DNA of 10,285 nt from a virus (lineage: Duplodnaviria > Heunggongvirae > Uroviricota > Caudoviricetes). The notes under the pieces are model-generated. The model made no database searches. It had not been told where the DNA came from and saw nothing but the letters and a program-made list of their open reading frames with translations. Where the stretch lies: IMG/VR virus record IMGVR_UViG_2531839374_000022; one strand, written 5' to 3'. The position numbers were made by a program, and so were the translations under genes. Below are positions 1 to 10,285 of this stretch, piece after piece (the first letter of the stretch is position 1; every line of letters begins with the position of its first letter).

Positions 1-2433
1 TTACTCCGTCTGCTCAATAATCTGCTGGTGCTCTTTGTTCCCCGTGCCGAACTCACGCAACCACGCATTGTAGCTGTGCTGTATCGCATCACGGCACGTT
101 TGATCATCCCAGCCAGTAACCACGCCACCCAGCAGTAAAGCAGCCTCCAGAATGGCGAACCTTGCCCCTACACGGTGAACCTGTTCCCCATAGTCGGCAG
201 GAATAAGACTGCGCCAGCGGGCTTCACAGTCACGAACGGTATCAATGGCCTGCTGCTGGTGGCCTGCAAGCCATCTGATCCACTCCCGCCCGGCAGCGCC
301 GTGATTGCTCTGCCACGCGGATTTTAATGCGTCTGCATGGTCTTTCCCTGTCTGGTGCTCATGAAAGCGCACCGCCTTACTTAACGGGATATTCAGCAGG
401 CGCACCAGTTGCCCCGCTTTTGTCTTGCGTCCTGCGGTGGCAATGAACGTTTCTAAATCCATTTCCCCGGTGCTGATTGCCACGGTACGCCAGCGTTTTA
501 GATCCCGATTTCCGCCTTCTTTCGCGCCCTGCAATTTCCCTACGCCGTTAAACAGGGCATAGGCAGACTGAGAAACGCTTATCGGGTCTGCGCCCTGTCC
601 GACTTCATCCAGCGGCATCAGTCCGTCATTGTGGGCGGCGGCCTCGTTTATCAGCCCCAGCGCCGTCCCGTACCACGTCAGGCGCAAGGCATCAGGGTTC
701 CCGTATAGACTGCTAGCCACGTTCTGCGTGGTTGTTTTCCCGGCGCTCGATTGCTCATAAAAATGAATCCCGAATCCGTCACGCTCTGCCACCCCGATTA
801 ATGGCGCTGCCAGTGCTGCGGCAATGCCTGTCATCATCGCGTAGTTGCCGTATGCCAGCCGCGCGACACTGTTGCGCCAGCTTTCCGGCGTTCCTGCTAC
901 GGTATACCCGGCAGCGGCTGAACTGCGCCCGCTGAACAAAACAGGCCGCTCAGGTGTGCCGATGATTTCCCCGTCCGGCATGATGTATGCCCCGCACTGC
1001 CAGCCTGTAGCATGAGCAACGCGCCACAATTCACGCGAGCCGCTCCGCTGTAGCCAGTCGGCAAGGATCGCCCGTAAACTGCTTTTGGTCGTGACGTTAA
1101 CCCCACCAGCTTTCAGGGTGCGCCAGCCTTCACGCTCGCCAATATCAGCCAGCGGGATAGCCGCTGTTGTCGGTATGCCTGCACCGAATGCCAGCCATGA
1201 GATAATAAGATACTGATCTTTGTCGTCGCGTCCCGTGCCGATAACCTCCAACGGGGAACATAACCAGCTTTCAGCGTTGACGATCTCCCCGCTTTCCTTG
1301 TCCACCTTCGGCGTTACCCAGAAAACGCCATCTTTGCGGCTCTCAATGTGGGGTTTTAGTGGATCTTTCTCTGGATGGTCAGTTTTACCGCCCTCAATGG
1401 CTTGCAATCGCGGTTTCACGGCTTCCCCTTGAATCTGGTACATCGAATCGTTAAACGCAGCCGTAGCGACTTCCAGCCCGTTTTGCTGGCGGTAGTCGTC
1501 CCAGTCGGCTTTGTAGTCTGTCGGCGGCAGCGCCACCCAGCCAGCCACGGATAAGGCGGCTTTCTCTGCGGCATCTTTGCCCGTGTTCGCCTGGTCGTCC
1601 TGCTGGTGGTCGTTATCTGCGGCAATGATAATCTGCGTGGCTGGATATATCCGGCGCATCACTTCGGCAACGGGTAGCAGGTTGCCCGCGTCAATTGCTG
1701 CCACTGCCAGCGCGTCCGGGCGCATCAGGTGAACTGAAAGGGCCGTCGCCAGCCCCTCGGCAATTAAAACGCTCTGCGGCGATTCTGGCGCGTTTACGGC
1801 GTGATATGCCCCGCGCTTTGCTGAACCTGTCAGGAGTCGCTTCTCTCCCTGCGGTGTAATGGTTTGCGCTGCTGCCACTGCGCCGGATTCGTCCACCAGC
1901 TCCAGCAATAACGAACCATCCGGCATAACCGGATAGTTAAACCCGGTCAGCCCTTTTGATTGCAGGTAATCAGATTCGCCCTGTGTGGCACTCTGGCGCA
2001 TTCCGGCATACAGATGGGCAAACGTAGCCCTTCGCTGCTCTGCGTCCTCTGCTGCCTGTTTCTGGCGCTCCTGCTCACGCTGCTGGCGGTCAGCTTCCAG
2101 TTGCTCTCTTCTATGGCTCGCTGCCGCCGGGTCGGTTTGCGCTGCCCGGTAATCAATACCCAGCACGTCAGCGGCAAGCTGTGCCGCCTCCGTGGTGTCG
2201 CAGTTGTTTACCCGCTTGATTAAATCCAGCCCGTCACCAGCGCCACACTGGTTGCAGATAAAGCTACCGCGCCCGTTGTCGTCGAATCTGAAACGGTCTT
2301 TTCCACCACATGCAGGGCATGGAGAATGGCGGCGCGATGAATCAGGCACGTCGATAGACAATTCAGCCAGCACATAAGGCCAGCGCCCTGCTGCGGCGCT
2401 GGTCACTTCGCGGATAAGGTCGATATTACGCAT
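1..2433 (-). CDS. Bifunctional DNA primase/helicase, phage P4 alpha family (zinc-ribbon + TOPRIM + C-terminal P-loop NTPase)
   Basis: Track ORF 1..2466 (821 aa). N-terminal Cys motif CPACGGKDRFRFDD...FICNQCG (primase zinc ribbon), TOPRIM-like LIAEGLATALSV and IIIAADNDHQ, Walker-A-like SSAGKTTT in the C-terminal half. Likely true start is the ATG at 2433 (MRNIDLIREV...), which has an AGGAGG Shine-Dalgarno 7 nt upstream; the track start at 2466 is an in-frame upstream extension. Stop codon at 1-3. Confidence 0.88.
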   Translation of the reverse strand: MRNIDLIREVTSAAAGRWPYVLAELSIDVPDSSRRHSPCPACGGKDRFRFDDNGRGSFICNQCGAGDGLDLIKRVNNCDTTEAAQLAADVLGIDYRAAQTDPAAASHRREQLEADRQQREQERQKQAAEDAEQRRATFAHLYAGMRQSATQGESDYLQSKGLTGFNYPVMPDGSLLLELVDESGAVAAAQTITPQGEKRLLTGSAKRGAYHAVNAPESPQSVLIAEGLATALSVHLMRPDALAVAAIDAGNLLPVAEVMRRIYPATQIIIAADNDHQQDDQANTGKDAAEKAALSVAGWVALPPTDYKADWDDYRQQNGLEVATAAFNDSMYQIQGEAVKPRLQAIEGGKTDHPEKDPLKPHIESRKDGVFWVTPKVDKESGEIVNAESWLCSPLEVIGTGRDDKDQYLIISWLAFGAGIPTTAAIPLADIGEREGWRTLKAGGVNVTTKSSLRAILADWLQRSGSRELWRVAHATGWQCGAYIMPDGEIIGTPERPVLFSGRSSAAAGYTVAGTPESWRNSVARLAYGNYAMMTGIAAALAAPLIGVAERDGFGIHFYEQSSAGKTTTQNVASSLYGNPDALRLTWYGTALGLINEAAAHNDGLMPLDEVGQGADPISVSQSAYALFNGVGKLQGAKEGGNRDLKRWRTVAISTGEMDLETFIATAGRKTKAGQLVRLLNIPLSKAVRFHEHQTGKDHADALKSAWQSNHGAAGREWIRWLAGHQQQAIDTVRDCEARWRSLIPADYGEQVHRVGARFAILEAALLLGGVVTGWDDQTCRDAIQHSYNAWLREFGTGNKEHQQIIEQTE

Positions 2434-2767
2434 GGTTGCCTCCTGCCACGGTCGCGCCCATATCATTAATCATGCTTTGCCATATCTCGCGCCCGATGTC
2501 AGTCAATCCGTCCTTAGTGACGCAACGATCAAGAAGCTCGATCCCCACGATTTCCCACTGCGGGTAGCGCACTTTCATGGCTGCCAGTGCGTAGCTATCA
2601 ATCAGGCTGCGAACGCCTTTTACTCCATTGACGATTTCCACACGGACGGCGAGGCCGTCCGCATCAATCATGAAATAGTCCCCGCCGCTGGTGGAAGTAA
2701 TGTGGTTATACAGTGCCGCCGCATACTTATTCGCCAGCGCATTCAGTCGGAAATTTTTAGTAATCAT
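2426..2767 (-). CDS. Hypothetical protein (113 aa), last gene before the primase
   Basis: Track ORF; ATG at 2767 preceded by GAGGGG Shine-Dalgarno; stop lies 2 nt before the primase start at 2433. No motif recognised. Confidence 0.6.
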   Translation of the reverse strand: MITKNFRLNALANKYAAALYNHITSTSGGDYFMIDADGLAVRVEIVNGVKGVRSLIDSYALAAMKVRYPQWEIVGIELLDRCVTKDGLTDIGREIWQSMINDMGATVAGGNHA

Positions 2768-2775
2768 GTCGCCCC

Positions 2776-3378
2776 TCAGTGCGCCAGCGGCATTTCAGGC
2801 CAGCCGTTTTCATTCAGTTCAGCTATAAAGCTGTTGTGAAGTTCAGCAAGCGTTTCACGACCAAATGGAGTCAGTGCTCCTTGTTCCACATCCATCATGG
2901 CTCTGTAGAAAATGATGGCGCGTTCTGTGCCAGACTCGATGCCAAAACGTTCTATCATCGCGCCCTCAATGTTGTTTGCCATAGCGAGGCGCTCTGCTAC
3001 TGGATACAGCGGCATGGCGACGATGCCGTTGGAATAAACAGCCACTTCGGAAGGATTGCCAGTATCATCAATGATGCTGACAGTGCCGTTTTCCTCTCTC
3101 ATTTCCAGCATGAATACTGTTGCGATCAGCCAGCGCCACATAATCACGTGATGCTGTGATGTGTAATCGAAATATCCCTGGTTGCCGCCACTGGCAATAG
3201 CGAGATGTATAAACATGCCTTCATCTGGTTTATCGTCATAATCCCCGGCATCCAGACGATTTACGGCATCAATATATGAGACGGTCTCAACGCGTTCTGT
3301 CATGCCATCGTTGCTGCGGTACATGATGTTTACGCCGCCAGGCGTTGCTTCTGCATGGAACGTTAAGAAATTATTCAT
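2776..3378 (-). CDS. Hypothetical protein (about 200 aa)
   Basis: Track ORF 2776..3483; probable start is the internal ATG at 3378 (MNNFLTFHAEA...), which overlaps the stop of the upstream ORF by 8 nt (ATGAATAA) and has a GAGG Shine-Dalgarno. No motif recognised. Confidence 0.6.
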   Translation of the reverse strand: MNNFLTFHAEATPGGVNIMYRSNDGMTERVETVSYIDAVNRLDAGDYDDKPDEGMFIHLAIASGGNQGYFDYTSQHHVIMWRWLIATVFMLEMREENGTVSIIDDTGNPSEVAVYSNGIVAMPLYPVAERLAMANNIEGAMIERFGIESGTERAIIFYRAMMDVEQGALTPFGRETLAELHNSFIAELNENGWPEMPLAH

Positions 3379-3592
3379 GTTTCGCCTCGCCTGAATGATT
3401 CTGTAACTCATATTTGCCCAACAATTCGTCAGCTTCCTGAATAGCTTCTGGTACGCCATTGAGCAGTGACATAACCGCGCCAATCATTAACTTGTCTCTG
3501 TTGCTGGGGCTGGCCCCTTCAAGCCAGAACCCTAAAACAGTCTGAACCTGTTCGATGCGACATTGCGCTTCAATGAGCTGGATGTTGGTCAT
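3371..3592 (-). CDS. Hypothetical small protein (73 aa)
   Basis: Track ORF; ATG at 3592 with GGAGAG Shine-Dalgarno; ATGA start/stop overlap with the upstream ORF (stop at 3589). Confidence 0.55.
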   Translation of the reverse strand: MTNIQLIEAQCRIEQVQTVLGFWLEGASPSNRDKLMIGAVMSLLNGVPEAIQEADELLGKYELQNHSGEAKHE

Positions 3593-3852
3593 TTCGCACT
3601 CTCCACATCGATTAAACTGATATCTATCAGGGAGGTAACTTTTTGTAGCCAGCTATTGATTACTGTCGCCTGTTCCCCTCCCACCGAGGGAACAATCTCA
3701 TTCATCACATGAACCAGACCTGTGCGCGCTCTGGTAAGCCGTTCAGTCGCGCAATCTGCGGGAGTGAATGTGTCTGGATATGGCTCTTCGCGCCCCAGCA
3801 ATGATTCAATTTCCAGCTCACACGGATGACGATAAATTAAGTTGATATTCAT
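3589..3852 (-). CDS. Hypothetical small protein (87 aa)
   Basis: Track ORF; ATG at 3852 with GGGGGTG Shine-Dalgarno; ATGA overlap with the upstream ORF (stop at 3849). Confidence 0.55.
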   Translation of the reverse strand: MNINLIYRHPCELEIESLLGREEPYPDTFTPADCATERLTRARTGLVHVMNEIVPSVGGEQATVINSWLQKVTSLIDISLIDVESAK

Positions 3853-4043
3853 TTTTCACCCCCAAGAATTACCAGCTCTGCACGGGCATCGTTAACCAAA
3901 GATGAGCACGCTTTAATCGCATCCACGACATCAGCAGCGTCCATTTCTTCAGCCGAAAGACTGACAGCAACCAGGACAGCCGCTGTTTGCTCGATTAATT
4001 GAAGTGCGGACGTAAGGCGAGGGGTATTAATTGAGTTATTCAT
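3849..4043 (-). CDS. Hypothetical small protein (about 64 aa)
   Basis: Track ORF 3849..4100 begins with GTG; the internal ATG at 4043 (MNNSINTPRL...) overlaps the upstream stop by 8 nt and has a G-rich Shine-Dalgarno, so 4043 is the preferred start. Confidence 0.5.
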   Translation of the reverse strand: MNNSINTPRLTSALQLIEQTAAVLVAVSLSAEEMDAADVVDAIKACSSLVNDARAELVILGGEK

Positions 4044-4254
4044 TGGTTGCCCCCCGTTTTCCTGACATTTCGCCACCTTCCAGCAGGAAATGAACGTCAC
4101 GAACGGCGAGATCCAATATCGCGAGTAACGCCTTCAGTTTTTCGTCTCGTGAGGGAGAGTTGCTCACCAGAATGTCATTAATCACTTCTGTCAGTGTGAT
4201 GATCTGGCTTGTGCGTTCGAGGGGATCCATATGCACATCGTAGGTTTTAATCAT
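4036..4254 (-). CDS. Hypothetical small protein (72 aa)
   Basis: Track ORF 4036..4344; preferred start is the ATG at 4254 (MIKTYDVHMDPLE...) with a GGAGGTG Shine-Dalgarno; it overlaps the stop of the upstream ORF (ATGATTAA). Confidence 0.55.
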   Translation of the reverse strand: MIKTYDVHMDPLERTSQIITLTEVINDILVSNSPSRDEKLKALLAILDLAVRDVHFLLEGGEMSGKRGATNE

Positions 4255-4441
4255 GTGCCACCTCCATGCGGATACGACCAGCAAAAAAGCAGACGTGATC
4301 GCGCACCAGAGAACGGCGAGCATCGCGTTCAGACTCGGCAGCAATATGATGAATTTTGGCGGTAATTGTCGGGCAATCGCGGCGAACTGCGGCGATAATC
4401 CAGATAAATTGCGGTTTTTGGGTAGGGGTAGTAGCCAGCAT
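4247..4441 (-). CDS. Small protein (64 aa), first gene after the structured leader; possibly Icd-like (host cell division inhibitor family of P1/P4-like elements)
   Basis: C-terminal 64 codons of track ORF 4247..5002. ATG at 4441 has a strong AAGGAGG Shine-Dalgarno 7 nt upstream. Sequence MLATTPTQKPQFIWIIAAVRR...FFAGRIRMEVAHD. The Icd-like assignment rests on position directly after a C4/CI-like leader and a remembered resemblance; it is not verified. Confidence 0.5.
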   Translation of the reverse strand: MLATTPTQKPQFIWIIAAVRRDCPTITAKIHHIAAESERDARRSLVRDHVCFFAGRIRMEVAHD

Positions 4442-4444
4442 AGC

Positions 4445-4710
4445 GGCAGCCTCCTTTGTGTTTAAGGAGTCACCGCCTGAGTTTCCACGCTCTGAAATGG
4501 CGGTGACGTTAGCAGGGGTGGAAATACCGGACACAAAGGAAACCGGCCTACGCGAACGTAGCCCCACTAACGCCACCATTGATACAGTACGGACTAGGCC
4601 GCTGATTTGATGTGCGTAGTGATCGGACACAAAAAAAGACGCTTTCGGCGTCTGTGTCGCCCTGAGTGTGTTCGGGTTTCCACGCCCGGTTGCTGATTTT
4701 GCAGCAACGC
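4445..4710 (-). ncRNA. Candidate structured leader / antisense-RNA immunity region (P4 CI / P1 C4-like): hairpins, direct repeats and a terminator
   Basis: On the minus strand: hairpin GTTGCTG-CAAAAT-CAGCAAC (plus 4689-4708); direct repeat GCGTGGAAAC at plus 4676-4685 and 4481-4490; a complementary TTTCCAC at plus 4518-4524; direct repeat TTTGTGTCCG at plus 4624-4633 and 4528-4537; UUCG-loop hairpin at plus 4548-4561; 9-bp stem GTCACCGCC/GGCGGTGAC (plus 4469-4477 and 4499-4507) enclosing one repeat copy, immediately upstream of the Shine-Dalgarno at 4449-4454. The family assignment is inference. Confidence 0.35.
4631..4653 (-). terminator. Rho-independent terminator (minus strand)
   Basis: Minus strand reads AGACGC-CGAAA-GCGUCU followed by UUUUUUU; 6-bp GC-rich stem at plus 4637-4642 / 4648-4653, then a run of seven T on the minus strand (plus 4631-4637, the last shared with the stem). 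Confidence 0.55.
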
Positions 4711-4940
4711 TTGGACTATAACAGCTTTTCTCTGCTAGGTGGTCATACCAGATAAAACCGTAACCCTTTAAGAGTTTTTCCTGTGCACGGCTCACCATCT
4801 TTTTGTTGAGGGTAAGCGCCTCGCGTACTGGTAACGGAACTCCGGGCGCTGCGGTATCAATATCAGGTTTTATAAGGTTGTAAGGGTTAACATTTGTTAA
4901 CAGGCCAGCCAGATTAAAGGCTTCTTTCTGGGCGGCAGGT

Positions 4941-5123
4941 TCATTCAGTATCACGGCGCACCTCCACGAACTCATTAACGAATCTCTCCAAAGGCTGAAC
5001 ACATGGCGACTGATAGCCCTCGCGGTAAAAGGTCACTCGGTTATGCTCGACGCGCTCAACGGTCACTACAGCCCCGTGCGAATCCTTGTAACGGCTTCCC
5101 GGCATCGGATTGTGGTTACGCAT
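4941..5123 (-). CDS. Hypothetical small protein (60 aa)
   Basis: Track ORF; ATG preceded by GGAGGT Shine-Dalgarno; start overlaps the stop of the antirepressor-like gene by 8 nt (translational coupling). Confidence 0.5.
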   Translation of the reverse strand: MRNHNPMPGSRYKDSHGAVVTVERVEHNRVTFYREGYQSPCVQPLERFVNEFVEVRRDTE

Positions 5124-5925
5124 GGTTTACCTCCAGACGTTTAGCGAGCCAGCGTTGCGACAGGCGGGTGAGTTCTCCTTTGCGCTGCTCATATTCCATG
5201 CCCATATCAATTAACGTGATATTGGTGCTTTCGAGATAGGCGAGGTGTTCAAGCTGTGCTGCGTTCATGCTGTCCCGTGGTTCGCCAGTAATGCCATTTG
5301 CCTGCGCCCACTGCTTCGCCGTCATGCCACCCAGCACGATACGGGCGATCATGTTGCTCTCGTTGCTGTAGTGGCGCTGCTGCGTCGTTTTGCCCATCTC
5401 GGCACGGGCCATATTCAGCGCATCGCACATTGGCTTAAAGTTGTTTGCGGCACTGAGACGGGCTTTTAGCTGGCGACGATAGCGGGCGGCGATTTCAGGC
5501 ACGCTACGCTGTAATTCTTCCTCGCACTGGATGAAATAACGGCGGATAGCGCGGCCCTGCTCGTTGCGTTCAACCATTGCCACTTCTTTAGCCATATCCA
5601 GCGATAGCAGGTAATCATGCTCTATTTGCTGGCGAGTTTTTGCGCTCGCCCGTTTTGGCGTGCTCAAATTTTCAACACGGATAAAATCGGTTCCGGCAAT
5701 AAAACCGTACTGGTCAATTCGGCCTTTAATCCAGTTAGTAAAGTCGCGGCCCACCCCCAGCGCTTTATGCAACGCCTTAGCGCTCACAATATTGGCTTCA
5801 CGCCCGCCAATGCGTCCGGCAATAACGGGAACAATAGCGGCAAAGTCGTTGCCGTTAATTACTCCCGTGTTAACGTTGGGTTGCGGGGCGGCCCCCGAAC
5901 TGAATCGGCTTTTTTCGATAGTCAT
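5116..5925 (-). CDS. Phage antirepressor-like protein (AntA/AntB N-terminal motif plus KilAC-like region)
   Basis: Track ORF 5116..5985 begins with TTG; preferred start is the ATG at 5925 (MTIEKSRF...) with a GGAG Shine-Dalgarno. Motifs SAKALHKALGVGRDFTNWIKGRIDQYGFIAGTDFI (AntA-type) and LSLDMAKEVAMVERNEQGRAIRRYFIQCEEEL (typical of phage antirepressors). Confidence 0.72.
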   Translation of the reverse strand: MTIEKSRFSSGAAPQPNVNTGVINGNDFAAIVPVIAGRIGGREANIVSAKALHKALGVGRDFTNWIKGRIDQYGFIAGTDFIRVENLSTPKRASAKTRQQIEHDYLLSLDMAKEVAMVERNEQGRAIRRYFIQCEEELQRSVPEIAARYRRQLKARLSAANNFKPMCDALNMARAEMGKTTQQRHYSNESNMIARIVLGGMTAKQWAQANGITGEPRDSMNAAQLEHLAYLESTNITLIDMGMEYEQRKGELTRLSQRWLAKRLEVNHA

Positions 5926-5938
5926 ATTTTCGGCTCCG

Positions 5939-6370
5939 TTATGCGGCGGTGAGATTGTCCGGGTATAGATTGAGAGTGTCGGCAATTTCAGGCTGAGAAA
6001 GTCCCTGATAGCCGCCAGCGTCGGCGTTATGGTTCACAAGCCGAATAACTTTTAGAACGTCACCGCGCCCGGTAAAGCGATAGCGTAAATGTGACCCTAT
6101 CCCGTCGGGGTTCTTTTCGTCTATACGCTCAAGCTGAATATCAAGCCTGCGCTCTAACTCGCTGGCGTAGTTCCTTCCAGACGAAAGGCGGCAATAACGC
6201 AGAATGTCATTTTCTGTCCATCCCTCTATACCAGTACGCAGCATATAGACTCTGGCACGATGCTTTTTCGGTGTGCGCTTTGGTGCTTGAAGGGATTTTG
6301 TAAGGGGCGTAACATCAGATACGCGAATATCTGAATTAGCCGCCTGTAATGGGCGGTTTTTCTTTTCCAT
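5939..6370 (-). CDS. Hypothetical protein (143 aa), translationally coupled to alpA
   Basis: Track ORF; its ATG shares the A of the alpA stop codon (TGATG overlap). Basic N-terminus; no motif recognised. Confidence 0.6.
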   Translation of the reverse strand: MEKKNRPLQAANSDIRVSDVTPLTKSLQAPKRTPKKHRARVYMLRTGIEGWTENDILRYCRLSSGRNYASELERRLDIQLERIDEKNPDGIGSHLRYRFTGRGDVLKVIRLVNHNADAGGYQGLSQPEIADTLNLYPDNLTAA

Positions 6371-6573
6371 CAGGCCACCTTCCCGCGGCGTTCTGCCAGC
6401 CAGTTGTGAATCTCAACCGCATCAAACGCAGTTATTTTTTCTCCCAGCTTTACCGGACGTGGTAGTGAACCGTTTCTTACTTTACGGTCGATGGTGGATA
6501 CACTAACGCCCAGCAATTCAGCCAGGCGGAAGCGTCTGATATAGCCTTTTGTAGGGATAGTGTCGATGTTCAT
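6370..6573 (-). CDS. alpA: AlpA/Vis-family helix-turn-helix regulator (prophage CP4-57-type regulatory protein / excisionase-like)
   Basis: 67 aa; RFRLAELLGVSVSTIDRKVRNGSLPRPVKLGEKITAFDAVEIHNWL fits the AlpA-family helix-turn-helix pattern; GAGG Shine-Dalgarno upstream of the ATG at 6573. Confidence 0.85.
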   Translation of the reverse strand: MNIDTIPTKGYIRRFRLAELLGVSVSTIDRKVRNGSLPRPVKLGEKITAFDAVEIHNWLAERRGKVA

Positions 6574-6612
6574 GATTCCCGTAACCTCTTAGCGATAGTT
6601 GTTGCTTCGTTA

Positions 6613-6617
6613 CGGGT
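6613..6617. repeat. IS2 target-site duplication, left copy (CGGGT)
   Basis: CGGGT immediately outside the IS2 end at 6618; identical pentamer at 7949-7953. IS2 is known to make 5-bp duplications. Confidence 0.8.
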
Positions 6618-6628
6618 TGGATTTGCCC

Positions 6629-7534
6629 CTATATTTCCAGACATCTGTTATCACTTAACCCATTACAAGCCCGCTGCCGCAGATATTCCCGTGGCGAGCG
6701 ATAACCCAGCGCACTATGCGGATGCCATTCGTTATAATGTTCGAACGCCTCTGCAAGGTTCTTTGCTGCCGTTAACCCGTCTGGTTTGGGCATGATACTG
6801 ATGTAGTCACGCTTTATCGTTTTCACGAAGCTCTCTGCTATTCCGTTACTCTCCGGACTCCGCACCGCCGTGTTCTTCGGTTCAAGTCCCAACATCCGGG
6901 CGAACTGGCGTGTTTCATTAGCCCGGTAGCATGAACCATTATCCGTCAGCCACTCCACTGGAGACGACGGAAGATCGTTGCCGAAGCGGCGTTCCACCGC
7001 TCCCAGCATGACGTCCTGTACTGTTTCACTGTTGAAGCCGCCGGTAGTCACCGCCCAGTGCAGTGCCTCACGATCACAGCAGTCCAGCGCGAACGTGACA
7101 CGCAGTCTCTCTCCGTTATCACAGCAGAACTCGAACCCGTCAGAGCACCATCGCTGATTGCTTTCTTTCACGGCCACTCTGCCTGTATGTGCCCGTTTCG
7201 ATGGCGGTACAGCAGGTTTTCGCTCAAGCAACAGCGCATTCTGGCGCATGATCCGGTAAACACGTTTGGCATTGATCGCAGGCATACCATCAAGTTCTGC
7301 CTGTCTGCGAAGCAGCGCCCATACCCGACGATAACCATACGTGGGCAGCTCTCCGATAACATGGTGTATACGGAGAAGCACATCCGTATCATCAGTGTGA
7401 CGACTGCGGCGGCCATCCATCCAGTCATCGGTTCGTCTGAGAATGACGTGCAACTGCGCACGCGACACCCGGAGACAACGGCTGACTAAGCTTACTCCCC
7501 ATCCCCGGGCAATAAGGGCGCGTGCGCTATCCAC
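6629..7534 (-). CDS. insD: IS2 transposase OrfB (InsD), 301 aa
   Basis: Track ORF; protein [34 protein letters not shown]... matches IS2 InsD as remembered; GTG start; expressed as the OrfAB fusion by -1 frameshifting. Confidence 0.95.
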
Positions 7535-7857
7535 TTTTTTGCCCGTCCATATTCAACGGCTTCTTTGAGGAGTTCATTTTCCATCGTTTTCTTGCCGAGC
7601 AGGCGCTGGAGTTCTTTAATCTGCTTCATGGCGGCAGCAAGTTCAGAGGCAGGAACAACCTGTTCTCCGGCGGCCACAGCAGTAAGACTTCCTTCCTGGT
7701 ATTGCTTACGCCAGAGAAATAACTGGCTGGCTGCTACACCATGTTGCCGGGCAACGAGGGAGACCGTCATCCCCGGTTCAAAGCTCTGCTGAACAATTGC
7801 GATCTTTTCCTGTGTGGTACGCCGTCTGCGTTTCTCCGGCCCTAAGACATCAATCAT
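7492..7857 (-). CDS. insC: IS2 transposase OrfA (InsC)
   Basis: Track ORF 7492..7902 has an upstream GTG extension; the canonical InsC start [26 protein letters not shown]... is the ATG at 7857. Confidence 0.95.
7534..7541 (-). other. Probable IS2 -1 programmed ribosomal frameshift site (A6G slippery run) in the insC/insD overlap
   Basis: Minus strand reads GGGCAAAAAAGTGG in the InsC/InsD overlap (plus ccactttttt gcccg at about 7531-7545). Frameshifting at an A6G motif is established for IS2/IS3-family elements; the exact position here is by eye. Confidence 0.5.
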
Positions 7858-7948
7858 CTGTACTCCAATGACTAGTCTAAAAACTAGTATTAAGACTATC
7901 ACTTATTTAAGTGATACTGGTTGTCTGGAGATTCAGGGGGCCAGTCTA

Positions 7949-7953
7949 CGGGT
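7949..7953. repeat. IS2 target-site duplication, right copy (CGGGT)
   Basis: CGGGT immediately outside the IS2 end at 7948, identical to 6613-6617. Confidence 0.8.
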
Positions 7954-7962
7954 ATTTAATGG

Positions 7963-8025
7963 CGTGCACGCTCAAAAAGGAATGATCGTATTTTTTACTA
8001 TCGTGATAGTAAAATTTACTATCAC
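7963..8025. promoter_or_regulatory. Operator-like palindrome cluster between the orphan gene and IS2/alpA
   Basis: Perfect 10-bp palindrome GCGTGCACGC (7963-7972); inverted repeat TACTATC-gt-GATAGTA (7996-8011) with a third half-site TACTATCAC (8017-8025). On the plus strand GTGATAGTAAA / TTTACTATCAC can pair and is followed by CTTTTTTT (8026-8033), so the same sequence could act as a plus-strand terminator. Confidence 0.35.
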
Positions 8026-8870
8026 CTTTTTTTCCCTGCCGTGGTGCGTTCTTCCGGTGTTCTGTCTGTGTCGGCTATGAGTTTCTTCAGGTAATCTATG
8101 GATGGCTCATCATAGCCGCCCCCCAAAAGCGCCCAGTGGTTTATTGTGGCGTTCGCCCATGCTTCGTTGGTTTCCTTCCCGTTCTTCCCTTTACACTCTT
8201 CTGGGTAGTGCCGCTTCACATAAATCAACGCCAAGAGGCAAATTTCGCGCTTTTGCCTGTGGCGCTCTCTGTTTCCGTGCTCAACGTTTTTAACATCCTC
8301 ATAAAGAGCTTGTAAGTTTATGCGAGTTTCGGGGCTGTATATGGGCTGGTTTTTGTCCATGCATTCGCCGATATATTCAACCCACGGCCTTGTTATGTAC
8401 AAATCCTCTACGGATATTTCGTGGAAGGCATGTTTTGTATAATCGAGAAAAAAATAATAATTCGCACTTACGTCTAGTTCTCTTTTTCTGTGTGCGGGGC
8501 TGAATATGCGTGCGGGAGTGTCAATAGAATCAAGCCCTGCGATGTCGAGTATATAGGAGGCGTTAACATGCCATAGCCCAAGCACATGGCAATCTATATG
8601 ATTTACAACGCCTGCCTTAAAGCTTTTTTCGTCCTCTACTTCAGTGATTATGTCGGCAAGTAATAAGCAGTCTTCTTTGACGTCTGGGAATAAAGAGCAA
8701 TTGCGGTAAAGACTCGCGATGCTATGTAATGTGCCGTCGTAGCCGCAAAGGTACGCGCTCAAATATATAGATTCTGCCGCCGCCATAATCAAAAGATCAT
8801 CAATATCTATTTCTAATAATTCGGCTGCTCTGTTAAGCCTGAAAAAAGGGGCGGGTGGTAATTTTTTCAT
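8022..8870 (-). CDS. Hypothetical protein (282 aa), AT-rich orphan cargo gene between the integrase and alpA
   Basis: Track ORF; ATG at 8870 preceded by AGGTGA Shine-Dalgarno. The DNA is visibly more AT-rich than the rest of the window (long A/T runs; exact GC not computed). N-terminus FFRLNRAAELLEIDIDDLL is weakly helix-turn-helix-like; no catalytic motif recognised. Confidence 0.65.
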   Translation of the reverse strand: MKKLPPAPFFRLNRAAELLEIDIDDLLIMAAAESIYLSAYLCGYDGTLHSIASLYRNCSLFPDVKEDCLLLADIITEVEDEKSFKAGVVNHIDCHVLGLWHVNASYILDIAGLDSIDTPARIFSPAHRKRELDVSANYYFFLDYTKHAFHEISVEDLYITRPWVEYIGECMDKNQPIYSPETRINLQALYEDVKNVEHGNRERHRQKREICLLALIYVKRHYPEECKGKNGKETNEAWANATINHWALLGGGYDEPSIDYLKKLIADTDRTPEERTTAGKKR

Positions 8871-8965
8871 TGCGTCACCTTTTACGCTGCGCCTTATTTT
8901 GTGATTGAGCCAGGCGGTAAGGCTTCCCGCTTTTCGCCCCGTCGAGCTAGGCTCAATCTATTCAG

Positions 8966-10285
8966 TTAGTTCGCCCTTCTGAGAGGCGTTACGTTGTAGT
9001 CTTTTCCGCTTTCCAGTGCCACCAGCAGATCAGCCCACTGTGCCAGTGCTGCTTTACGCTCATCAAAATACTGATGGCGGTTATAAATCCCCTCTACGCC
9101 CTTAATGCGATGATTGAGGCATCGTTCCGCCACAACAGGATCAACACCCAACGCTGCTAAATGAGTACGTGCGGTGCGTCGAAAGTCGTGAATCGTGAAA
9201 TTAGGCACATCCGGCATTTCGGCGCGAACCTTAGCCAGTGCTACGGGTAAAGTGCTTTCCTGAATATGTGGGATCATTCTGTTTTGCATCTTCCTGGCCG
9301 GAAGCACCCATGCGCTATTACATGAAAAGGTGTGTAGCTCTCTCAACCATTCAACGGCTGGGGAAGGTAGAGGTATATCAATAGGGTCTCCGTTTTTGCT
9401 GCGTTCTTCCGGCAAATGCCATACCGCACCATCTAAATCAAACTCTTCCCATCGTGCGGCGCATAATTCCATTTTGCGGACGCATAACGCTAACAGTAAT
9501 TTGAACGTGATTTCGTTCTGGCGACTGAATCCCTTAGCCGTGCGCATGGCTTTGAATAGCTGGATTAACTCATCGCGGGTTAACCAGCGGTCACGGGCAG
9601 CTTCTTTCCCTCCGGCGTCTGCCACCTCAAAGGCTGAACAGGGGTTAATCTCTAGCGCGTGCCGTTTGATTCCGTAGTCGAATATGCGGCGCGTCCATCT
9701 CAGCACGTCCGTTGCTATGGTCGGCGCTCCACGGTCAACAATACCTTTCAGCATGTCATCGATATGGCGCGGTTTCACGTCCTCTACCTTCATGCTGCCA
9801 ATGCAGGGGTTTATATCTTTGTCGATACGGCGGCGGAGTATATCGGGGTGCTTCCAGCGCGGGAGGATCTGACGCTCAAAGTATTCAGCGGCAAGCTCTG
9901 AAACGCGCATAGCGTTCTTCTCTGCTTCCATCTTCGCCAGTGCTTCGGTTTTGCGCTTCTGCTTCTCTCCTGCAACGTCATAGCCCAGCGCAACGCGAGC
10001 CGATAGCTCTTTGGCTGTCTCTCTGGCCTTTGATAGTGATAGCTCGCTATACGAACCAATTAGCATGGCGCGGGACTTCCCTGCGAGTTTATAGCGGAAT
10101 CTCCATGTGGGGGTTTTGTCGGCTTCACGGTAACGTAGGTATAAACCGTTACCGTCTGCCCGCCCCTCGAATCGCTCTCCGCTCTTAATCCATGCGCGGA
10201 TCTGCATGTCTGTTAGTTTTGGCATTTTGCGAATATCCAAACTTTGAATAGGGGGTGTACCCAAAGCAATGTACCCAAACCTCAT
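8966..10285 (-). CDS. int: Tyrosine-type site-specific integrase, P4-like family (N-terminal arm-binding domain + catalytic domain)
   Basis: Track ORF of 439 aa reaching the window edge. N-terminal GNGLYLRYREADKTPTWRFRYKLAGKSRAMLIGSY matches the P4-type arm-binding (DUF4102-like) pattern; C-terminal HDFRRTARTHLAALG...NHRIKGVEGIYNRHQY carries the R/H-x-x-R/Y catalytic signature. A more typical start is the internal ATG at 10225 (MPKLTDMQIRAWIK...). Confidence 0.9.
   Translation of the reverse strand: MRFGYIALGTPPIQSLDIRKMPKLTDMQIRAWIKSGERFEGRADGNGLYLRYREADKTPTWRFRYKLAGKSRAMLIGSYSELSLSKARETAKELSARVALGYDVAGEKQKRKTEALAKMEAEKNAMRVSELAAEYFERQILPRWKHPDILRRRIDKDINPCIGSMKVEDVKPRHIDDMLKGIVDRGAPTIATDVLRWTRRIFDYGIKRHALEINPCSAFEVADAGGKEAARDRWLTRDELIQLFKAMRTAKGFSRQNEITFKLLLALCVRKMELCAARWEEFDLDGAVWHLPEERSKNGDPIDIPLPSPAVEWLRELHTFSCNSAWVLPARKMQNRMIPHIQESTLPVALAKVRAEMPDVPNFTIHDFRRTARTHLAALGVDPVVAERCLNHRIKGVEGIYNRHQYFDERKAALAQWADLLVALESGKDYNVTPLRRAN

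Follow-up and report, generated by a model that had tools for sequence, protein, structure and literature searches.

An EcCIMP1-like phage-inducible chromosomal island

The 10,285-nucleotide (nt) record IMGVR_UViG_2531839374_000022 (referred to below, at its full length, as the window) very probably represents a Gram-negative phage-inducible chromosomal island (PICI) of the EcCIMP1-like lineage, of which it covers the left two-thirds; the island resides in an Escherichia coli/Shigella chromosome. The window is identical (100%) to positions 2483-12767 of the source contig (locus L013; GCA_000296305.1, contig AMGB01000076.1), and the same integrase gene (int) was found in many Shigella and E. 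coli assemblies. Every gene of the element within the window is placed on the minus strand, with unidirectional transcription running from int through alpA to the primase-helicase gene (pri-rep). The order given in the initial annotation of this DNA (int, cargo gene, alpA, small genes, RNA leader, coupled open reading frames (ORFs), primase) was present as described.

EcCIMP1 is a PICI of E. coli MP1 whose excision and transfer by the helper phage Kapi1, dependent on alpA and int, have been demonstrated experimentally; it carries neither terminase nor capsid genes and was scored as 'Type C #var01' (PMC11773190). Comparison of an intact sister copy of the window element with EcCIMP1 revealed identities of 84% for orf143, 74% for AntA, 72% for DUF4222, 100% for the Icd-like protein and 79% for pri-rep. 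Five of the six small ORFs of the replication operon were compared (orf72, orf64, orf87, orf200 and orf113) and were 92-97% identical to their counterparts, and the right-end genes orf61, pRiA4b-ORF3 and orf119 were 97-100% identical. Int and AlpA share 28% and 33% identity, respectively, with the EcCIMP1 proteins, and these low values on an otherwise shared backbone indicate that the integration module has been exchanged.

The junctions of the element were set by comparison with the empty site of E. coli K-12. The intact element (14,177 bp; the copy in the source contig has 16,950 bp) is located between yicC and dinD, in the 3' end of yicC. The repeated attachment (att) sites that the initial annotation expected beyond the window edges do exist: attL is the yicC 3' end (CAGATTCAGAACATCGAGTAA) and attR is a second copy of it, undamaged in the E. 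coli relative L002 (22198-22230). In the source contig, 12 of the 21 bases of the attR core are gone (L013 19282-19300), and 18 nt are gone in L009 (17844-17860); the occurrence of different internal deletions in different Shigella-type copies suggests repeated decay of excision competence. No tRNA gene was detected in the window or flanking the element, and the attachment site is a protein gene, not a tRNA gene as had been considered; yicC is named as an integration target of reference PICIs in the preprint of PMC10111431. A 19-bp repeat near both ends (GTGTACACAARGGTGTACC) was tried as the att core and rejected, since the empty K-12 site puts it inside the element, where its copies are probably arm-type sites of the integrase.

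Gram-negative PICIs follow a plan of Integration, Bro, Replication and Late zones, with cos in the Late zone, and several of them are matched by the Rfam models C4 and isrK (PMC10111431). The element fits this plan, with (i) an Integration zone composed of int, cargo and alpA, (ii) a Bro zone composed of orf143, AntA, DUF4222, an eta-like ORF and the immunity RNAs, (iii) a Replication zone composed of an Icd/Kil-like ORF, the six small ORFs, pri-rep, iterons and ssb, and (iv) a Late zone with unassigned genes and a putative cos. We found inward-facing int followed by alpA on one strand, an antirepressor and CI/seqA RNAs in the Bro zone, a primase-replicase with an adjacent origin and ssb (both outside the window), a direct-repeat att site, and a size of 14,177 bp, which lies within the 10-20 kb range, with no structural or lysis family assigned to any gene in Pfam and PHROGs. 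Packaging is represented by a cos-like segment recognized from sequence alone, and the element has every sequence-testable feature of a PICI except a terS or capsid gene. The kinship with EcCIMP1, the four-zone plan and the use of a known PICI target bear out one of the two possibilities put forward in the initial annotation, namely a separate PICI-like lineage sharing a regulation and replication core with P4. SatelliteFinder would assign the element to 'Type C', the class of EcCIMP1, and not to Type A or B, because no capsid-morphogenesis gene or terS is detectable.

DNA related to the element is present in 715 of the 5426 complete E. coli genomes, and a scan of species-representative genomes yielded 29 loci in other species across the Enterobacterales, which, taken collectively, share the order int, alpA, orf143, antA, DUF4222, icd, orf200, orf113, pri-rep, ssb, orf203, orf61, pRiA4. 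Their integrases are of the yicC type (87-91% identity) or of a P4-Int-like type (41-45%; 73% in a Yersinia), and the helicase is usually DUF927, with a P4-alpha-like form in two loci (L030 and L031). Two loci with non-enterobacterial labels, L037 (Chryseobacterium sp. 18061) and L041 (a metagenome-assembled genome, Paenochrobactrum), are typical enterobacterial copies (int 88% and orf143 81% in L037), for which contamination or mis-binning is more likely than a real host range. Backbones that are otherwise nearly identical can differ greatly in their Late zone; in L001 (18960-22351) and L019 (15481-20649), phage ejection-protein and lytic-transglycosylase genes follow pri-rep, and EcCIMP1 is among such relatives.

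The RNA switch upstream of the replication operon

Four Rfam RNA motifs exceed their gathering scores in the window: int-alpA, isrK, c4-a1b1 and C4. The last three are located in a region of approx. 500 nt that separates DUF4222 from seven tightly packed ORFs and the primase-helicase gene; all features described in this section are on the minus strand. The isrK-like leader (4721..4632), the counterpart of P4 seqA, scores 72.1 bits with isrK (4708..4632) and 55.1 bits with c4-a1b1 (4721..4669), contains the upstream C4 target b1 (GTGGAAA, 4683..4677), and is ended by an intrinsic terminator (4653..4637, then a T7 run). It is followed by a C4/CI-like antisense immunity RNA (4583..4496; Rfam C4, 80.3 bits, E=6e-15), the same model scoring P4 CI at 74.9 bits. 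Two further targets lie downstream: b2 (GTGGAAA, 4488..4482), just past the C4 3' end, and a2 (ACACAAAGGA, 4461..4452), which overlaps the Shine-Dalgarno sequence AAGGAGG of the Icd/Kil-like ORF. Nucleotides 60-66 of C4 (TTTCCAC) are the perfect complement of both b1 and b2, and nucleotides 44-53 are that of a2. The pairing follows the logic of P1 c4 and P4 cI, which is well established. P4 itself matches isrK and C4 in the same order and at the same relative position, directly downstream of vis. A candidate constitutive promoter with an extended -10 element, TGTTATAGT (4723..4715), can be read 7 nt upstream of the isrK-like 5' end; its counterpart in the P4 leader is ATATAGT, which stands where PLE would be expected.

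A set of 21 elements was examined, composed of five with aligned leaders (the window, EcCIMP1, two E. coli yicC elements and P4) and 16 further loci that were scanned. Both pairings (b1/b2 and a2) are perfect at equivalent positions in all 21, with seven different b heptamers and 13 different a2 sequences among them. Such covariation at three sites argues strongly for a working antisense system whose specificity differs from element to element, and the existence of several C4 specificities suggests that co-resident satellites may fall into heteroimmune types.

A long eta-like ORF (4975..4247), matched by Pfam Phage_ASH (PF10554) over residues 79-182 (i.e. 4720..4409), reads through both RNAs, in frame with and enclosing the Icd/Kil-like ORF, and PF10554 spans the equivalent stretch of P4 as well. 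The immunity logic of P4 CI and the nested eta/kil arrangement are summarized in PMC10111431, according to which eta translation from the upstream late transcript across CI overrides CI-dependent termination in P4. In 15 of the 21 elements, the eta-like frame continues without a stop for 450-970 nt upstream of the Icd-like ATG, which fits the nested arrangement. The view that PF10554 'Ash' is merely a translated RNA gene was softened in the light of both this count and the translation of P4 eta across CI.

Two further observations concern this region. The family PF10554 'Phage_ASH' (RefSeq 'ash family protein') corresponds to the isrK-like plus C4/CI stretch (in P4, L018 8330-8740), i.e. to the eta/CI region, and not to P4 epsilon, which matches PF25738; papers equating 'Ash' with epsilon may therefore score the eta/CI region as an epsilon marker. 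In addition, the sequence GGCGGTGAC at 4469-4477, 18 nt past C4, is the complement of the 3' arm of the stem that closes C4 (nt 77-85). Each of the five aligned leaders has an equivalent 8-9-mer, which could give rise to an alternative fold in competition with that of C4 before the transcript is processed.

A phage-type cos-like segment and its predicted helpers

When the DNA following the primase gene was compared with phage genomes, the sole match was a 98-bp non-coding stretch (L009 16315-16412; about 17753-17850 in L013), whose counterpart lies at the very beginning or the very end of the SfII, SfV, SfIV, ST64B and related records (E down to 1e-19). In SfV and SfII it stops 7 nt short of the terS start, and the identity to SfII/SfV is 85% for the full 98 bp and 93% for the 59 nt on the terS side. 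The cohesive end of SfI was determined experimentally as 5'-TGCCCGCCCC and is nearly identical in SfV (PMC3636060), and SfIV has been reported to share the SfI cohesive-end site. The exact SfI 10-mer TGCCCGCCCC is present in the cos-like segment. The statement of the initial annotation that the element has no cos thus holds for a cos of the P2/P4 type but not for cos in general, as an SfI/SfV-type cos-like segment lies approx. 5 kb past the window edge; as regards other packaging functions outside the window, no terS, capsid gene or sid/delta/psu was detected there.

The same segment was found in EcCIMP1, in all Shigella copies examined, in Kluyvera and Atlantibacter relatives, and in 339 of the 5426 complete E. 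coli genomes. An Erwinia relative carries a different segment at the same position, matching the genome termini of mEp235 and Fraca, and two E. coli yicC elements (L001 and L002) lack the SfI/SfV-type segment and have other Late-zone contents. The presence of cos of differing phage types at the same position argues for selection rather than debris, and we infer that a swappable cos module may set the helper range. A second exact copy of TGCCCGCCCC is located within int (10157-10166, plus strand, antisense), where the flanks do not resemble a phage cos; the chance expectation for 10 kb, counting both strands, is about 0.02 copies, and the second copy is probably a coincidence. EcCICFT073 has two functional cos sites (PMC6092414).

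For EcCICFT073, a cos PICI of approx. 15 kb with neither terS nor capsid genes, packaging of about three units into each full-size head has been suggested (PMC6092414). Three units of 14,177 bp amount to 42.5 kb, as against 41.5 kb for SfII and 37.1-41.5 kb for genomes of the SfV group, so three-unit packaging would be compatible with SfII and tight or too large for the other phages of the group. We tentatively propose, with somewhat less than even confidence, that EcCIMP1-like 'Type C' PICIs are cos-only satellites whose natural and efficient helpers would be phages of the SfI/SfII/SfIV/SfV/ST64B type (for other members, of the mEp235/HK97 type) and not Kapi1; the islands would be packaged as concatemers of about three units in unmodified heads, and every lineage would have a combinatorial C4/CI immunity type of its own. 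The differing cos modules provide concrete helper predictions, which for both this element and EcCIMP1 point to SfI/SfV-type phages; if this is true, the helpers in Shigella would be the phages that convert O-antigen serotypes. The EcCIMP1 paper (PMC11773190) mentions neither cos nor this helper prediction, and a literature search for the 10-mer TGCCCGCCCC returned only unrelated papers.

Weighing of alternative interpretations

Several observations weigh against the interpretation of the element as a helper-dependent PICI controlled by an RNA switch. (i) No terS, rpp, capsid-morphogenesis or other interference gene was recognizable in the Pfam and PHROGs scans. (ii) Under the SatelliteFinder rules, int, alpA and a primase alone define an ambiguous Type C PICI, a class set aside as possibly defective or another kind of element. 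(iii) Helper-dependent induction and transfer are experimental only for the relatives EcCIMP1 and EcCICFT073, and for none of the yicC-type copies examined. (iv) EcCIMP1 is transferred at very low frequency by Kapi1, a phage unrelated to the SfV group, and such inefficient movement by an unrelated phage means that the cos-based helper prediction could be wrong. (v) A strict consensus scan found no promoter on the coding strand, the TGTTATAGT candidate included. (vi) The eta-like frame is closed in six of the 21 elements, and translation through the leader therefore cannot be universal.

The lack of a recognizable packaging or interference protein, the very inefficient transduction of EcCIMP1, the ambiguous standing of the Type C class and the large number of Shigella copies that are riddled with insertion sequences (ISs) and have a damaged attR would also agree with an integrative element that moves without phage packaging (e.g. 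by means of a conjugative helper), or with an immobile regulatory or defence island. We consider this improbable, since searches of Pfam and PHROGs revealed no match to a relaxase, an oriT-associated protein or a coupling protein, the element has a phage cos in which the cohesive end is matched exactly, and excision and transfer of EcCIMP1 depend on AlpA and a helper phage.

Still less probable is a defective temperate prophage remnant (P1-like or lambdoid) that has kept an immunity/antirepressor block and a replication gene and is not a satellite. A compact plan of 14-17 kb, in which an inward-facing int precedes alpA, is maintained in many genera and never accompanied by structural or lysis genes, the close relative EcCIMP1 is experimentally helper-dependent and transferable, and the iteron origin adjoins the pri-rep fusion. 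These features outweigh the resemblance of the C4-icd leader to P1 immI, the DNA matches to the P1-like phages RCS47 and D6 at icd, and the frequent occurrence of AntA-type antirepressors and DUF4222 in prophages; the SfV-like cos fragment could likewise be taken for leftover phage DNA, but its constant position with varying phage types favours selection over debris.

The other possibility raised in the initial annotation was a degenerate P4-like satellite. All P4 proteins were compared by tblastn with the intact element L009, and Sid, Delta and Psu also with L001 and L002, where they produced nothing but noise (E>=0.1). In the intact element, matches were obtained only for Int (25.8% identity), Vis/AlpA (34.7%), the region of the old 'cI ORF' (41.7%) and residues 5-311 of alpha (34.9%). 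The reported absence of sid, delta and psu was confirmed for the window and for the whole intact element: within its 14.2 kb, Sid, Delta, Psu, epsilon, cnr, orf151, gop, beta and cII gave nothing better than E=0.1. Moreover, no tblastn match at E<=1e-5 was obtained for sid, delta, psu, epsilon, cnr or orf151 in the 29 relatives (approx. 25 genera), which indicates that absence of the capsid-size module is ancestral to the lineage and does not reflect a loss in this copy. The 19-nt cos of P2/P4 (GGCGAGGCGGGGAAAGCAC) was found only in P4 and is absent, with up to two mismatches allowed, from the window, L009 and L013. In two Enterobacter relatives, a stretch of 13 nt resembles the P2 cos; it falls within a coding region and was dismissed as a chance match.

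As for the P4-like class, the integrase has the Pfam architecture of P4 Int (26% identity) and AlpA is 35% identical to Vis. The designation of pri-rep as an alpha primase proved correct for its N-terminal part, whose Zn-ribbon and TOPRIM domains are homologous to P4 residues 5-311 (35%), but not for the helicase, which belongs to a different family: P4 alpha consists of Zn-ribbon, TOPRIM, D5_N, DUF5906 and Pox_D5, the window protein (which is also truncated by IS4) of Zn-ribbon, TOPRIM and DUF927. Altogether three to four of the seven P4 core components are present, while the P4-like rule of SatelliteFinder calls for at least five. The description of the orphan gene and IS2 as standing in place of the capsid-size module is misleading, since the orphan occupies a normal cargo slot and IS2 is a recent insertion, absent from the sister copies L003 and L009, which are otherwise 99.9% identical to the window. 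Although the Int architecture, AlpA/Vis, the order of the isrK/C4 leader, the Icd/Kil-like ORF and the N-terminal alpha primase are shared with P4, and although IS elements mark this copy as decaying, the idea that sid-delta-psu and a P2-type cos were lost between int and alpA, with the orphan and IS2 as the scar, was rejected as scarcely credible, given the missing remnants, the other helicase, the other cos, the distant integrase and the conservation of the int-cargo-alpA state throughout the lineage.

What appeared to be P4 minus its capsid module is, on the PICI interpretation, a standard Gram-negative PICI of a widespread enterobacterial lineage, which automated tools leave in a grey zone ('Type C'). 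This kind of satellite is already known and has been validated experimentally via EcCIMP1; the SfI/SfV-type cos with its helper prediction and the extent of the RNA-switch covariation are modestly new.

Proposed mechanism and state of this copy

A possible mode of action of the intact PICI is outlined here, in which the quiescent-state steps are derived from sequence together with P4/P1 precedent and the induced-state steps from analogy with EcCICFT073, EcCIMP1 and P4. In the quiescent state, the constitutive promoter upstream of the isrK-like leader would yield short transcripts, whose processing would release the C4/CI-like RNA. This RNA would pair with b1 upstream and with b2 and a2 downstream, a2 covering the Icd/Kil-like ribosome-binding site, and the translationally coupled replication operon would in consequence be kept silent. 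Upon induction, a helper phage would raise alpA expression, upstream transcription would pass from alpA through orf143, antA and DUF4222 into the eta-like ORF, and eta-like translation across the leader would override the RNA block. Int and AlpA would then excise the element, pri-rep would replicate it from the GAGACAACA iterons, and the helper terminase would cut and package the concatemers at the borrowed SfI/SfV-type cos, without capsid remodelling.

The copy in the window is itself probably non-functional, because IS2 stands between alpA and the DNA upstream of it, pri-rep has lost its last ~110 residues to IS4, and more than half of the attR core is gone. In EcCIMP1, the helper-responsive alpA promoter fragment extends from -449 to +50 (PMC11773190). 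Other Shigella copies bear further IS1, IS3-family and other IS insertions as well as deletions. This Shigella/E. coli copy is a relic in decay and probably immobile.

Organization of the individual modules

The Integration module begins with int (10285..8966, minus strand), which encodes a tyrosine integrase with the P4-type domain architecture (Pfam Arm-DNA-bind_3, Phage_int_M and Phage_integrase). Translation probably begins at M21 (10225): the homologues in relatives are annotated as 419 amino acids (aa) long, and the first 60 nt of the frame carry GGGTACA(C) repeats that continue the arm-type repeats located upstream. Directly after the int stop codon lies the int-alpA RNA motif (Rfam RF02996, 8957..8891, minus strand; 60.6 bits versus a gathering score of 35.8). 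It is also present in the yicC-type elements L001 and L002 and has no match in EcCIMP1, whose int differs, and it therefore appears to travel with the integrase. The distance from this motif to alpA is approx. 2.3 kb in the window and approx. 1 kb in copies devoid of IS2.

The slot between int and alpA is variable, with unrelated genes in the relatives. In the window it holds an orphan cargo gene (8870..8022, minus strand) encoding a 282-aa protein, for which no match was found in Pfam, PHROGs, PADLOC, NCBIfam, PDB profiles or by phage tblastn, and only six related protein clusters in a database of 5.8 billion sequences; its AlphaFold2 (AF2) model is of low confidence (predicted local distance difference test (pLDDT) score of 61). 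The complete IS2 (1331 bp, 7948..6618, minus strand; orfA 7857..7492, orfB 7534..6629) is bordered by a 5-bp target duplication, ACCCG (6613-6617 and 7949-7953), and ends 44 nt upstream of the alpA ATG. The alpA gene (6573..6370, minus strand) encodes a helix-turn-helix protein of the AlpA/Vis family (Pfam Phage_AlpA; 34.7% identity to P4 Vis), a putative activator and excision factor by analogy with EcCICFT073 (PMC6092414) and EcCIMP1 (PMC11773190), in which AlpA is the master activator.

Downstream, alpA, orf143, antA and DUF4222 are closely packed on the minus strand. The start codon of orf143 (6370..5939) shares one base with the alpA stop codon (ATGA). This gene is represented by 633 protein clusters, the best 120 of which are 79-92% identical, and the genera among the matches listed include Serratia, Klebsiella, Citrobacter, Pectobacterium, Salmonella, Enterobacter and Kluyvera. 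The AF2 model of its product (pLDDT 69.5) has a disordered N-terminus followed by a core of three helices and two beta strands and is that of a putative winged-helix-like protein; a Foldseek comparison with the PDB gave no significant fold match (best E-value 0.08, assorted winged-helix proteins), and PADLOC, NCBIfam, PHROGs, Pfam (also at E<=1) and PDB profile searches gave nothing useful. While orf143 is strongly conserved across genera, the coupled alpA is freely swapped (33% identity to EcCIMP1 AlpA). The gene would be well suited as a marker for this satellite lineage. The following gene (5925..5116) encodes an AntA/AntB-family antirepressor (Pfam AntA, 2e-24; PHROG anti-repressor Ant, 1e-42), the C-terminal half of which (residues 159-258) matches the PADLOC candidate defence family PDC-S22 (E=1.6e-11), and is overlapped by 8 nt by the gene for a small DUF4222 protein (5123..4941; Pfam DUF4222, 5e-23). 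This antirepressor block, between alpA and the RNA leader, has no counterpart at that place in P4.

The first gene of the replication operon, also on the minus strand, encodes the Icd/Kil-like protein (64 aa, 4441..4247; NCBIfam phage_ICD_like, 71.7 bits versus a cutoff of 25). It is followed by the tightly packed small ORFs orf72 (4254..4036), orf64 (4043..3849), orf87 (3852..3589), orf73 (3592..3371), orf200 (3378..2776) and orf113 (2767..2426), the last of which overlaps pri-rep. Overlaps of 4-8 nt chain the Icd-like ORF through to orf200, and the single gap, of 8 nt, separates orf200 from orf113; where the six small ORFs have PHROGs matches at all, these are to families of unknown function. 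The pri-rep gene (2433..1, minus strand) encodes a Zn-ribbon and TOPRIM primase fused to a DUF927 helicase (Pfam), which has 919 aa in intact copies. In the window it is cut by IS4 at about residue 810, and bases 1-3, which form the stop codon of this copy, are IS4 sequence. The helicase half is of the P4-alpha type (D5_N/DUF5906, 'P4 family primase') in L030 (11332), in L031 (14765) and in the E. coli matches H15, H17 and H23; its variation within the same backbone indicates that the replicase is a domain-swapping fusion.

Directly past the pri-rep stop, in the source contig and outside the window, an AT-rich region of 260 bp contains ten exact GAGACAACA iterons in both orientations (0.11 expected by chance; none inside the window), which form the expected replication origin. 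Beyond it lie ssb, several unassigned genes, a non-coding segment, orf61, a gene of the pRiA4b-ORF3 family and a reverse-strand ORF. In Pfam and PHROGs, none of the genes following the primase was assigned to the capsid, terminase, Sid, Psu or Delta families, and searches of these genes with the same libraries as for orf143 likewise gave nothing useful.

Comparison with known systems

The element resembles EcCIMP1 in the order of the backbone from orf143 to pri-rep, in the right end, the isrK and C4 leader and the cos-like segment, and in its 'Type C' standing. The two differ in several respects: EcCIMP1 is inserted beside a tRNA-Thr gene next to proA (here, yicC) and has no int-alpA RNA match, and its primase is followed by P22-like ejection-protein genes, a second alpA and PerC, a position taken in this element by ssb and unassigned genes. 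Their C4 specificities are TTCGCAG/GTACAAGGA in EcCIMP1 versus GTGGAAA/ACACAAAGGA in the window, and the window copy is broken by IS2 and IS4.

With P4, the element shares the Int domain architecture, AlpA/Vis, the Zn-ribbon/TOPRIM primase, an iteron origin and probably the dependence on a helper cos, together with the arrangement of promoter, seqA/isrK-like leader, CI/C4, seqC and kil/eta, with the same pairing logic. It differs from P4 in that it has no sid, delta, psu, epsilon, cnr, orf151, gop, beta, cII or P2-type cos, its helicase is DUF927, an antirepressor block is present between alpA and the leader, the att site lies in a protein gene (in P4, a tRNA gene), and all genes are on one strand.

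The leader is similar to the immI region (c4-icd-ant) of P1/P7, in which a C4 RNA with a'/b' loops is likewise flanked by upstream a1/b1 and by downstream a2/b2 over the icd ribosome-binding site; an Icd-like protein is encoded by the first ORF in both, and there is DNA similarity to P1-like phages at icd. Unlike in P1/P7, antA (5925..5116) lies upstream of C4 (4583..4496) and hence outside RNA control, and the RNA of the element would gate a replication operon (the small ORFs and pri-rep), whereas that of P1 gates ant.

Cos PICIs of the EcCICFT073 type have, by their published description (PMC6092414), the same unidirectional int-alpA-pri-rep order, an AlpA activator, no terS or capsid gene, and a cos of the helper type. 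EcCICFT073 was not found in two 45-49 kb stretches of the CFT073 chromosome. Its cosN is lambda/phi80-like and lacks the phage cosB (PMC6092414), while the element described here has an SfI/SfV-type cosN whose terS-proximal flank is 93% identical to that of the phage.

Finally, two groups of minimal satellites offer further parallels. The phage-inducible chromosomal minimalist islands (PICMI) of Vibrionaceae (PMC10803314) are similar in their reduced set of int, alpA and primase, the lack of capsid remodelling and the use of helper recognition sequences, and the cos-type Staphylococcus aureus pathogenicity islands (cos-SaPIs) such as SaPIbov5, as cited for precedent in PMC6092414, are similar in helper-cos packaging without capsid remodelling; packaging of such satellites possibly takes place as concatemers. 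Both groups differ from the element in their hosts and helpers, the element being larger and carrying a P4-type RNA immunity.

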